Source of the DNA: Escherichia coli 042
GTDB lineage: Bacteria; Pseudomonadota; Gammaproteobacteria; Enterobacterales; Enterobacteriaceae
NCBI RefSeq assembly: GCF_000027125.1
Contig: NC_017626.1
DNA: 64,000 nt
Strand: one strand, 5' to 3'
This document shows, piece by piece, positions 27,162 to 31,038 of the stretch. Position 1 is the first letter of the stretch. Each line of letters starts with the position of its first letter. The notes beneath the pieces are model-generated. The model saw only the letters and a list, made by a program, of their open reading frames with translations. It had not been told where the DNA came from and did no database searches. Both the position numbers and the translations under genes were made by a program.

Positions 27162-28106
27162 TCAAGGGTACGGGTCCGCTTCGTTTGATTTGCGTGTTTT
27201 TAACAATTTTAAAACCCAGACATACTGTTCCGGATGTGGCCCCACCAAAATTTCCACTGTTTTGTTCATTTGTCGGGCAATCATTTTATTGTCCGCGCTG
27301 GCAATGCAAGCATCCATTGGTGGCCGAATTTCAATAGTCAGGAGATGTTTTTTTTCATCATAAACCGGGAAAAGTGGTATAATCATAGCCTGACTGATGT
27401 TCATCAGACGTCCAATGATTGGTAATGTCGCTTTATAGGTCGCAAAAAAATCAGCAAATTCACTGTATTCAGGACCATGATCCTGATCTGGGAGGTAATA
27501 TCCCCAGTATCCCTGGCGTACTGACTGAATAAATGGTTTTATCCCATCCTCCCGGGCATGTAAGCGCCCCCCGAATTTACGCCGTACTGAATTCCAGACA
27601 TAATCAATCACTGAATTTCGTTGCTGATGAAACATGGCGGCCATTTTTTTTCCCTGAGCTGCCAGCAACATTGCAGGAATATCCACGCTCCAGCCATGGG
27701 GAACCAGAAAAATCACATTTCTATTATTGTGTCGAATTTCCTCAAGAATTTCGAGGCCTTTCCAGAACACTCGTTTCTGGAACTTTTCCGGACCACGAAT
27801 TGCCAGTTCTGCCATCATCACTATGGATTGCAATGCTGTGGCAAACATTTTGTCGACAATTATTTCCCGTTCTGTATCACTCTTTTCTGGGAAACAAAGC
27901 GATAAATTAATCGTCGCCCTGCGACGAGCTTTTTTGCTCAATCTGCCCGCCCAACGCCCTATTTTTGCCAAGACAGGATCTCTGAATGAAGGGGGAAACA
28001 TTGAAATACCTGCAATCATTCCCAAAAGGAACCATGTAGACCAGTAAACAGGGGAAAGGTAATTTTTCTTAAATTCAGGAATAAACTCAGATTTATATTT
28101 TTTCAT
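27162..28106 (-). CDS. msbB2: Lipid A late acyltransferase (LpxL/LpxM family; msbB2-like)
   Basis: 314 aa; position at end of shf-capU-virK cluster as on Shigella/EAEC virulence plasmids. Confidence 0.7.
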   Translation of the reverse strand: MKKYKSEFIPEFKKNYLSPVYWSTWFLLGMIAGISMFPPSFRDPVLAKIGRWAGRLSKKARRRATINLSLCFPEKSDTEREIIVDKMFATALQSIVMMAELAIRGPEKFQKRVFWKGLEILEEIRHNNRNVIFLVPHGWSVDIPAMLLAAQGKKMAAMFHQQRNSVIDYVWNSVRRKFGGRLHAREDGIKPFIQSVRQGYWGYYLPDQDHGPEYSEFADFFATYKATLPIIGRLMNISQAMIIPLFPVYDEKKHLLTIEIRPPMDACIASADNKMIARQMNKTVEILVGPHPEQYVWVLKLLKTRKSNEADPYP

Positions 28107-28170
28107 TATTTAGTGCGAATGCCTCTACCAAAATTATCATTACTGTTTTATTCAGAGAATACATCAAACC

Positions 28171-29121
28171 TTAATTTAAATTCTGATGTTCTGAGTGTAC
28201 AGGATATGCATCCAAAGAGCGGATAGTAGTTTCATGGATATAATCCAGCAAAGCGTATCGTTTTCGGTACTCAGAGCGTTTTTTACTGGCTATATCGCTT
28301 AGCGGCTTTCGAATCACCTGGGTTGGTAATCTGTACCAGTCACCACAGGTTTTTCCTGCTACAGACTCCCAGAAATCACTATAGACCGCAACAAAGGTTT
28401 TGCGTTTCTGATACCAGTATCTCAATTGCCGGAAAACATGACTGTGCTCACTGACTGCCAGACACTCAGAGATATTGCAAGCTTTCATCAACGCACAAAA
28501 TGCTTCAAAAATAATCCGTTTTGGGAAAATCCCATAACAGGCCCGGGTTGCGCACCGAATAACATCAGGTCCGGTATTTTTAGGGGCTCCCTGTAATCCG
28601 CCAATAAAAGCAATGTGTCCATTTTGAGTCAGAATGACTGAAAATGTTAACCGGGCAATAACTGTTTTATTGTAAAACAATGACAACATCAACTCTCCTT
28701 CCCGGTCAAAACCACTGGGAGAACACTGGATATCAAAATTCTCTCCATCTTTCCCGATGAATTGGACTAATGATACCGATTTTTGTGGAAACAAAAATTT
28801 AGAATATTTTTCTGGCAAATTTTGCACAAAGCGATAATGCTCAAGAATATATTGTCCACGGGTCCAGGCGCGCCCCCCTTTATGCAAATAAGGGCGATGA
28901 ATTCTTGCTGGCAACGTGGGGTGTATTGCCAGAATATCCTCAATGCACGGCAAGGAACGCAGTTCATAATAATATCGAATACTGACAACCGGATTTATAG
29001 AACATCGCAAAATGTACATGAACCGAAATTTTCTGTGTTCCCACTTCCCCGGTAGTGAATCTGAGGAAAAAATAATCCTTTTAAGGAAACCGATAAATGA
29101 TAAGTTACTTATAGAAAACAT
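28171..29121 (-). CDS. virK: VirK-like protein (DUF535-type)
   Basis: 316-aa ORF between glycosyltransferase and acyltransferase; assignment mainly by conserved locus architecture. Confidence 0.6.
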   Translation of the reverse strand: MFSISNLSFIGFLKRIIFSSDSLPGKWEHRKFRFMYILRCSINPVVSIRYYYELRSLPCIEDILAIHPTLPARIHRPYLHKGGRAWTRGQYILEHYRFVQNLPEKYSKFLFPQKSVSLVQFIGKDGENFDIQCSPSGFDREGELMLSLFYNKTVIARLTFSVILTQNGHIAFIGGLQGAPKNTGPDVIRCATRACYGIFPKRIIFEAFCALMKACNISECLAVSEHSHVFRQLRYWYQKRKTFVAVYSDFWESVAGKTCGDWYRLPTQVIRKPLSDIASKKRSEYRKRYALLDYIHETTIRSLDAYPVHSEHQNLN

Positions 29122-29125
29122 ATTG

Positions 29126-30214
29126 TTACGTTTGCTTCGCTAATGTGAGTATTTTTAACGCAGTTTTATTAATATCAAACCGCTCTTCTATATCCTGTTT
29201 TGCCAGGCGAGCCATCTGATAAAAACGCCCAGGGTCATTAAAAAAATCATTCAGGGCGCACATCCATGCGTGCTTATTACCTGCTGGTAACAATGTCCCG
29301 GTCTGGTTGTTCTGAATAACCTCAGGGATTCCACCAATCTGAGTGGCCACTACAGGCACAGAAAATGCCGATGCTTCTGCCAGCACCATACCAAAAGATT
29401 CGTTTTCTGAAGGCAGAACCACCAGACTGGCAACCCGATATACGGGGGCGGCAGGAAAAACATTGTCAGCAATAAAAACATCATCATGCATGCCCATACT
29501 GTCAATCTGATACTGTAAATGTTCCCGCAGTTCAGGTGAACCAGACCCCACAATCAACCAACAGAACTGTCGTCCATTCATTTTTAAATGGAACAGTAAA
29601 TTCAACATAAATTCGTGCCCTTTTTCCGGGCGCAACATTCCTACCTGAGCAATTACGGGGCATCCTCTTCGGGACGCCAGCCAGGAAAGAACACTCGGAG
29701 GCAAACTGTTTCGGGAATCAACGTATAATTCCTGGAAATCAAAGCCAGGAGGCACAACAGTAACCCGAGTTCGACATCCTTCCTGCTCCAGATGTGTCTT
29801 CATATTTGTTCCGGGAACAATCACCTCATCGCAAAAATGATTTATTGAAAAAAATTTTGTTTTTCGTGTCAAATATGTCTTTTGCCTGATAATTCTGAAT
29901 GGATGTTTCCAGGTAAAAAACCGTACCAAACCAACAATATTACTATCATGTCCACTGTGACAAACGATTGCATCGGGCTGAAAACTATGAACTATTCCGA
30001 GTAATCTCCATACAGTAGGAATGTGAAGACTGTTTCGAAATAACGCGAATGTGATATCAATTCCAAACTTACTGGCTTCAAAAGCAATTTTGCTGTTCTC
30101 CCTGCAGACAAGCAGAACTGAATGCCCCATTTTCTTCAGGGCCTTCATTTGAGCAACAGCCTGTAATTCCTGACCACCTATATTCGGTGATGATTCCGTA
30201 AATAGTATATTCAT
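29126..30214 (-). CDS. capU: Family-4 glycosyltransferase (CapU/RfbU-like hexosyltransferase)
   Basis: 362 aa; C-terminal EX7E-like region ...ENESFGMVLAEASAFSVPVVATQIGGIPEVI. Confidence 0.75.
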   Translation of the reverse strand: MNILFTESSPNIGGQELQAVAQMKALKKMGHSVLLVCRENSKIAFEASKFGIDITFALFRNSLHIPTVWRLLGIVHSFQPDAIVCHSGHDSNIVGLVRFFTWKHPFRIIRQKTYLTRKTKFFSINHFCDEVIVPGTNMKTHLEQEGCRTRVTVVPPGFDFQELYVDSRNSLPPSVLSWLASRRGCPVIAQVGMLRPEKGHEFMLNLLFHLKMNGRQFCWLIVGSGSPELREHLQYQIDSMGMHDDVFIADNVFPAAPVYRVASLVVLPSENESFGMVLAEASAFSVPVVATQIGGIPEVIQNNQTGTLLPAGNKHAWMCALNDFFNDPGRFYQMARLAKQDIEERFDINKTALKILTLAKQT

Positions 30215-30216
30215 TA

Positions 30217-31038
30217 TTAGTCATCCGGTAATCTTGGCCCCTTATGAAGGGCCAGCAACGATGAAAAAAACGGTGTTGTATAATAAAAAAGTCGTCTTTT
30301 CAGCCATACGCAATTTTCCCGTTCCTTGGTGCTTATTCTTCCTATCCGTGTAGTTCCTTTAGCAGGAGCATTCATTCTTCTTTCTGTTGTATATAAATAA
30401 TGGAATCCAAGTTCTTCAGCGATCTGAATATAATCCTTGTTATAATAACCTTCCGGCCAACACAAATGTTTACTGCATTTTCCTGTCATTTTTTTTAAAT
30501 ATTCTCTCCCGCTCAGTAAGTCCTGCCGAAGATGTTTACACTGTTCTTCTCGTGAAGTGAACTTTTTATCCCAACGTGTATGAGTATGTGTATGAACATG
30601 AAATTCGACCAGACCAGATTGCAACATTTCGTTCACTTCAGACCAGCGAAGCATAACATTATCAGCATTCCCGGTTGCTATTTGATGTTCGCAATCGCGA
30701 TGAGAATATTCCTTTCCAGGAGAGTGACGAACCGGACCATTTCCAATAAAACTGGTAATTAAAAAAATATGTGCCTGGAGATTAAACTCGTTTAATAAAG
30801 GATATACCTGAAACCAGTTGTCAAGGTATCCATCATCAAATGTCAACATAACGCTTTTACGGGGAAGTTTTCCGCCCCGATAAAAAAACTCCAGTTCATC
30901 TGATGACAGTGTTTTCCAGTTGTTTTCAGCCAACCATTTCATTTGTTTCCGGAATGTCTCGGGAGAAAGTGTAACCAGTCCTGGGCAATGGCTGACATGA
31001 TGATACATTAATACCGGAACATGATTTGCTTTAAACAA
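30217..31038 (-). CDS. shf: Polysaccharide deacetylase-family protein (Shf)
   Basis: 273 aa; FDDGYLDNW motif (NodB/PgaB/IcaB-type). Confidence 0.75.
   Translation of the reverse strand: MFKANHVPVLMYHHVSHCPGLVTLSPETFRKQMKWLAENNWKTLSSDELEFFYRGGKLPRKSVMLTFDDGYLDNWFQVYPLLNEFNLQAHIFLITSFIGNGPVRHSPGKEYSHRDCEHQIATGNADNVMLRWSEVNEMLQSGLVEFHVHTHTHTRWDKKFTSREEQCKHLRQDLLSGREYLKKMTGKCSKHLCWPEGYYNKDYIQIAEELGFHYLYTTERRMNAPAKGTTRIGRISTKERENCVWLKRRLFYYTTPFFSSLLALHKGPRLPDD

Follow-up and report, generated by a model that had tools for sequence, protein, structure and literature searches.

Within the 64,000-nucleotide stretch of DNA analysed here (the window), positions 27162-31038 hold a shf-capU-virK-msbB2 locus, which consists of four intact open reading frames (ORFs) on the minus strand that are co-directional, tightly packed and arranged from 5' to 3' in this order. 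The first gene, shf (= SfpgdA; 30217-31038, minus strand), encodes a polysaccharide deacetylase of family CE4, 273 amino acids long when read from a TTG codon. It is followed by capU (= rfbU, wabB or Sfgtr4; 29126-30214, minus strand), encoding a full-length family-4 glycosyltransferase (GT4) of 362 amino acids, by virK (28171-29121, minus strand), encoding an intact DUF535 protein of 316 amino acids, and by msbB2 (27162-28106, minus strand), the 314-amino-acid product of which is a late lipid A acyltransferase of the LpxM family. The intergenic gaps are 2, 4 and 64 nucleotides, respectively. The locus has a GC content of 0.413, lower than that of the window as a whole (0.495) and of the fec genes next to it (0.58). 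An earlier reading of this DNA from sequence only had described four co-directional AT-rich genes for a deacetylase, a family-4 glycosyltransferase, a VirK-like protein and a late acyltransferase. Positions and composition of the ORFs agree with this description, profile matches were obtained for all four products, and a deacetylase, a GT4 enzyme, a DUF535 protein and an LpxM paralogue were indeed found in this order, closely spaced on one strand. A consensus scan of the locus for promoters and terminators yielded no more sites than were found in shuffled sequence, and an Rfam scan gave no match inside the locus.

Shf matched the polysaccharide deacetylase family PF01522 (E = 6.4e-28), contains the metal and catalytic motifs of the NodB-type CE4 enzymes, TFDD at residue 66 and HTHTH (H(S/T)xxH) at residue 149, and shares 95.6% amino acid identity with Shf (SfPgdA) encoded by the Shigella flexneri plasmid pINV; no signal peptide was found in this protein. 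The ATG codon annotated as the start of shf in pINV, seven codons upstream of the TTG at 31038, reads ATT in the window (31057-31059), and the 280-amino-acid Shf in RefSeq begins at 31059, that is, at this ATT. Ahead of the TTG at 31038 stands GGAGGAGG, and this codon aligns with the start of Ecf1 (273 amino acids) of pO157-type plasmids, suggesting that it is the likely real start of shf.

CapU matched two domains of GT4 families (GT-B fold, retaining), the N-terminal Glyco_transf_4 (PF13439, E = 1.5e-12) and the C-terminal Glycos_transf_1 (PF00534, E = 1.5e-26), and contains an EX7E motif (ESFGMVLAE) at residue 272. It shares 95.8% amino acid identity with the pINV copy (SfGtr4) and 58.8% with Ecf2/WabB from a plasmid of the pO157 type. 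WabB, an alpha-1,7-GlcNAc transferase of the lipopolysaccharide inner core, was reported to add N-acetylglucosamine (GlcNAc) to heptose III (HepIII) (preprint 10.1101/536201), and in the genome paper on enteroaggregative Escherichia coli (EAEC) 042 RfbU was equated with WabB, the HepIII substituent of the R3 core being given as glucosamine (GlcN) (PMC2808357). SfGtr4 of pINV, on the other hand, transferred glucose to lipid A in vitro (PMC7355660). Since the identity to Ecf2/WabB is only 58.8% and the reports conflict (GlcNAc on HepIII versus glucose on lipid A), the acceptor of CapU is unsettled. SfGtr4 was also found to bind SfPgdA, and mutants in either gene were more sensitive to lysozyme and neutrophils (PMC7355660).

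VirK matched the Pfam family DUF535/PF04393 with E = 1.9e-89, residues 26-298 covering positions 2-278 of the 281-position model, and is 93.4% identical at the amino acid level to VirK of pINV. The assignment of the 316-amino-acid protein to VirK, which a lack of similarity would have overturned, thus held. Within 27000-31200, the only difference between the window and the chromosome of E. coli CV839-06 is base 28857, which is C here and A in CV839-06, where the annotation marks virK as a pseudogene interrupted by an internal stop. The C at 28857 is also found in O104:H4 and in plasmid pCoo of enterotoxigenic E. coli (ETEC), indicating that the window carries the common, intact virK allele. 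VirK was described as a cytoplasmic, GNAT-like protein, the loss of which leads to higher outer-membrane permeability and polymyxin sensitivity (PMC12562796).

MsbB2 scored 442.1 bits on TIGR02208 (lipid_A_msbB), above the curated equivalog cutoff of 336.05, and 521 on NF006507, for which the cutoff is 337. Its HX4D motif, HGWSVD at residue 137, which corresponds to the catalytic HX4D/E signature of the lysophospholipid acyltransferase superfamily, aligns with VPHGWAVD of the core LpxM. MsbB2 shares 96.2% amino acid identity with MsbB2 of pINV and 70.2% with the core LpxM. For the pINV enzyme, the 96%-identical copy, LpxM-like lipid A myristoyltransferase activity is cited (PMC2808357, PMC12562796), and from this near-identical copy MsbB2 is predicted most likely to transfer a myristoyl chain to penta-acyl Kdo2-lipid A. 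The Prokaryotic Genome Annotation Pipeline (PGAP) labels the gene 'lpxM', which masks the fact that msbB2 is an accessory paralogue.

Upstream of shf, a PhoP box, TGTTTA-TAAAT-TGTTGA (TGTTTATAAATTGTTGA; 31143-31159, minus strand), was read from the sequence. It matches the shf box of pCP301, TGTTTAtgaatTGTTgA, listed in PMC5775216, and is conserved in both pINV and pCoo. PhoP binding and PhoP-dependent expression of the operon on pINV, shf-rfbU-virK-msbB2, were shown in the same study (PMC5775216). Furthermore, alignment with pINV, where the operon start site and the -10 element (TAAATT) were experimentally mapped (PMC12562796), places a candidate -10 hexamer, TAGTAT (31125-31130, minus strand), at the position of the mapped element, 12 nucleotides downstream of the PhoP box. 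Right after the -10 region, pINV has ~49 bp that are missing in the window (31100-31135, compared to pINV segment 7990-8045) and in pCoo. The leader of the E. coli-type loci, chromosomal and on the ETEC plasmid, is ~50 nucleotides shorter than that of pINV, which could change regulation. The conserved box and the pINV data make PhoPQ- and Mg2+-dependent expression the most likely prediction for this copy.

The locus is flanked by insertion sequences (ISs). On the msbB2 side lies a copy of IS600 (25799-27045, minus strand). It shares 98.0% identity with the IS600 annotated in pINV, a 1264-bp copy, and is 17 bp shorter. Its frames are fused into one 379-amino-acid ORF (25842-26981), giving a permanently fused OrfAB-like transposase instead of two frames with a programmed frameshift, and CV839-06 and O104:H4 are annotated with the same 1140-bp gene. 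On the other side, between the shf promoter and fecE, lies a frameshifted IS911-like element of the IS3 family (~31204-32441, plus strand, the right end being approximate) with the terminal sequence TGAGGTGGCACAC; at the matching place in CV839-06, PGAP annotates an 'IS3 family transposase, frameshifted'. A simple composite transposon was considered and ruled out, as the two flanking elements differ (IS600 versus IS911-like).

Around the locus, the gene order is a TetR fragment, DUF2254, a BCCT transporter, IS600, msbB2, virK, capU, shf, the IS911-like element, a small hypothetical gene, fecEDCBA-fecRI and IS1F. The TetR-family regulator gene beside the DUF2254 and BCCT genes (19500-22200) is split by IS100 (IS21-family istA/istB), as it also is in CV839-06, and is intact in O104:H4. 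Gene order in the O104:H4 2009EL-2050 chromosome agrees with that of the window, except for a group II intron in the IS911-like element. This intron, with an ltrA reverse transcriptase gene, occupies positions 13084-16550 of the O104:H4 segment and corresponds to 31963/31964 of the window, which has no insertion there.

BLAST comparison delimited a 4.18-kb segment common to the plasmid copies (27128-31305, minus strand), with identical end-points in Shigella pINV and ETEC pCoo. Nucleotide identity over this segment is 94.9% to S. flexneri pINV and 99.0% to pCoo (NC_007635), and its upstream end takes in ~100 bp of the IS911-like left end. With 93-96% amino acid identity to the pINV proteins in addition, the alignment upheld the proposal that the architecture is that of the locus known from Shigella and EAEC plasmids. 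The chromosome, pINV and pCoo all have the shf promoter joined to the IS911-like left end (TGAGGTGGCACAC, from ~31204), and both plasmids diverge from the chromosome at 31305, beyond which a further 137 bp are common to the two plasmids. Because the IS is whole in the chromosome and the plasmids have a common break at 31305, the plasmid copies descend from one truncated derivative of a chromosome-like arrangement. In some ETEC plasmids, the match extends farther at the msbB2 end, starting from 27058, a pattern suggestive of repeated exchange. IS600 is found beside msbB2 in both the window and pINV, but the two copies point in opposite directions and lie at unequal distances from the gene, indicating that these were independent insertions.

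When complete E. coli genomes were searched with the locus interior alone, the locus was found in 562 of 5426, occupying 522 chromosomal places and 115 plasmid places; at least 80% of it is present in 431 of the 562 carriers. A chromosomal location is not unusual: among complete E. coli genomes it outnumbers the plasmid one.

Together, our data strongly support the view that the locus is a chromosomal copy of the known shf-capU(rfbU/wabB)-virK-msbB2 operon, a horizontally acquired, PhoP/PhoQ-controlled envelope-remodelling module. What was established directly is which genes these are, that they are intact, that the PhoP box is conserved and that the setting is chromosomal. For what the enzymes do, how the operon is regulated and its transcription as a single unit, we draw on the literature on near-identical Shigella and EAEC copies or on inference, and propose the following scheme. 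A PhoP-dependent promoter immediately upstream of shf would drive transcription through all four genes. MsbB2 would add the last (myristoyl) chain to penta-acyl lipid A, so that hexa-acylation is maintained in low Mg2+ or under host conditions, and CapU/WabB, as a GT4 enzyme, may place GlcNAc on heptose III of the lipopolysaccharide (LPS) inner core. Shf, a presumed cytoplasmic CE4 deacetylase with a reported role in lysozyme protection, would bind and work with CapU, and VirK, as a cytoplasmic GNAT-like protein, may help to keep the outer membrane intact and the cell resistant to cationic peptides. The locus is part of a mosaic, IS-rich island beside the fec iron-citrate genes, and IS-mediated recombination probably exchanged it between chromosome and plasmids.

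Several points weigh against this reading. The leader is ~49 bp shorter than the mapped one of pINV, so the promoter geometry is deduced here by alignment, and expression and activity of this particular copy are likewise inferred. As the ATG of pINV is ATT in the window, shf would have to be translated from TTG 31038 or from a non-canonical codon. Published work has not settled whether Shf acts on peptidoglycan or on the LPS core, nor what VirK does. Moreover, the locus has decayed in some relatives, with a nonsense codon in virK of the closest genome, CV839-06, and about a quarter of the 562 carriers holding it in partial form.

For the first two genes of the operon, a more specific scheme may be considered, although we hold it only tentatively and regard it as less likely than not to be correct: Shf and CapU may be a cytoplasmic pair of de-N-acetylase and glycosyltransferase that equips heptose III in the inner core of the LPS with a positively charged GlcN, in which case peptidoglycan would not be the main target of Shf. 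The lack of a detectable signal peptide in Shf and the distance of 2 nucleotides between the shf stop and the capU start are compatible with this scheme, as are the binding of SfPgdA to SfGtr4 (PMC7355660) and the description of the HepIII substituent as GlcN in one report (PMC2808357) versus GlcNAc in another (10.1101/536201). If it is true, the operon, with core GlcN, a sixth acyl chain and VirK, would be a PhoP-driven programme acting on how the outer leaflet is charged and packed. The two-step route of WabH and WabN in Klebsiella is reportedly a precedent for such a pair of glycosyltransferase and de-N-acetylase.

The main rival to the operon reading is that the four genes ride along in the island, silent or decaying, as AT-rich foreign DNA which is silenced by H-NS, is redundant with core lpxM and ybjX, and does nothing for the envelope. 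The GC content of 41%, the IS elements on both sides, the virK pseudogene in CV839-06, the many genomes with truncated or IS1-interrupted versions and the loss of the shf ATG start are all in line with such a fate. However, all four ORFs are open and their catalytic motifs intact, the PhoP box, the -10-like hexamer and a strong Shine-Dalgarno sequence are retained, the TTG start of shf coincides with that of Ecf1, and the locus is conserved at 99.7-100% over hundreds of chromosomes. We therefore consider a silent passenger improbable and retain the interpretation as a PhoP/PhoQ-controlled operon.

It is still less probable that the window comes from a plasmid or a very large secondary replicon and that the locus is just the ordinary plasmid-borne one. 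Such an origin could be read from a few plasmid-labelled records that have the same flanks at 99.7%, including a 655-kb 'plasmid' and a 21-kb plasmid. Against it, the 39.5 kb from 7015 to 46488 of the window are collinear with the 4.93-Mb chromosome of E. coli CV839-06 at 99.95% identity, the remaining 18 kb on the right match other E. coli chromosomes at 99.9%, the same context is found in the O104:H4 chromosome, and the annotation examined, which covers essentially the whole window, contains no replication or transfer genes. With its IS600 and IS911-like flanks, the copy is thus chromosomal and IS-flanked, as had been noted from the sequence beforehand. The rest of the window contains typical chromosomal-island genes. 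A tRNA scan found no tRNA gene in the window, suggesting that the insertion site of the island lies outside it.

That the acyltransferase is the housekeeping lpxM, next to which three unrelated genes lie, as the PGAP label 'lpxM' might imply, is already refuted as judged from the sequence, and was given hardly any weight, since the protein is 70.2% identical to the core LpxM versus 96.2% to pINV MsbB2, the core gene lies between pykA and mepM/znuA, unlike here, and the four genes move together on plasmids as the 4.18-kb segment. The possibility of a core lpxM in its normal context, which the sequence-only reading had named as fatal to its own proposal, was ruled out by this identity and this gene context.

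For an accessory msbB2 within a chromosomal operon, a practical consequence may follow. Strains carrying the island have two late myristoyltransferases, and a single lpxM knockout may therefore fail to detoxify their lipid A. In the ~10% of E. coli with the locus, such a knockout would probably not yield penta-acyl lipid A, which is relevant to the use of lpxM/msbB mutants for LPS detoxification in vaccine or GMMA (generalized modules for membrane antigens) strains and in low-endotoxin expression hosts.

Elsewhere in the window, a DNA phosphorothioation defence system of the SspABCD type is represented by two genes at 456-4671 on the minus strand, for which PADLOC reported SspC (1114 amino acids; 1451 bits) and SspB (296 amino acids, DUF4007; 381 bits); in the matching chromosome, a gene of the PAPS-reductase family (SspD-like) lies just past the left edge of the window. 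An IS102 RNA (RF00124) match at 55114-55350 on the plus strand scored 74.6 bits, compared to the gathering score of 46, and lies upstream of, and overlaps the start of, an Ag43/Cah autotransporter gene (55294-58215). The module to which this match and the autotransporter gene belong comprises GTPase, Ag43, DUF932, antirestriction, JAB-domain and YeeU/CbtA genes.

Compared to known systems, the locus resembles the operon of S. flexneri pINV (pWR100/pCP301) in gene order, orientation and PhoP box, and in how it joins the initial ~100 bp of an IS911-like element. Different from the locus here, the pINV operon is plasmid-borne, has ~49 extra bp between the -10 element and shf and an upstream ATG, and its IS911-like element is truncated, which is complete in the window. 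The pCoo locus has the short promoter form found in the window but is plasmid-borne, and in several ETEC plasmids no lpxM is annotated under the match. The ecf1-4 operon of pO157-type plasmids likewise combines a deacetylase, a GT4 enzyme and an LpxM paralogue; amino acid identities to Ecf1, Ecf2 and Ecf4 are 69.6%, 58.8% and 65.5%, respectively. Its third gene, however, encodes a 573-amino-acid CptA-like phosphoethanolamine transferase/membrane protein instead of VirK (VirK of the window showed no significant similarity to Ecf3, E = 0.16), and its upstream region is unrelated. With a DNA identity of ~68% and this different third gene, assignment of the locus to the pO157 ecf type was ruled out. 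The core chromosomal lpxM (msbB1) belongs to the same enzyme family as msbB2 and encodes the same HX4D motif. Unlike msbB2, it has a locus of its own, pykA-lpxM-mepM-znuA, with normal GC content and outside any four-gene operon, a setting that was recovered from another record, a mislabelled chromosome.

The chromosomal shf locus of EAEC 042 (Chaudhuri et al. 2010) has no known difference from the one described here, having the same four genes near fec and a PhoP-regulated promoter; the likeness was judged by the description in that paper together with the O104:H4 and CV839-06 chromosomes. According to the 042 genome paper (PMC2808357, 2010), this strain has two copies: a chromosomal one, in which shf, rfbU, virK and msbB2 are Ec042-4769-72 and lie near fec (Ec042-4776-82), and one on pAA2 without msbB2, with a PhoP/Q-regulated promoter on both. 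A 2025 paper on VirK also lists a chromosomal and a plasmid virK in 042 (PMC12562796). Publications thus already cover the locus, its place next to fec on the chromosome and its regulation; apart from the practical point about lpxM knockouts, the copy in the window leaves the current understanding of the operon unchanged.

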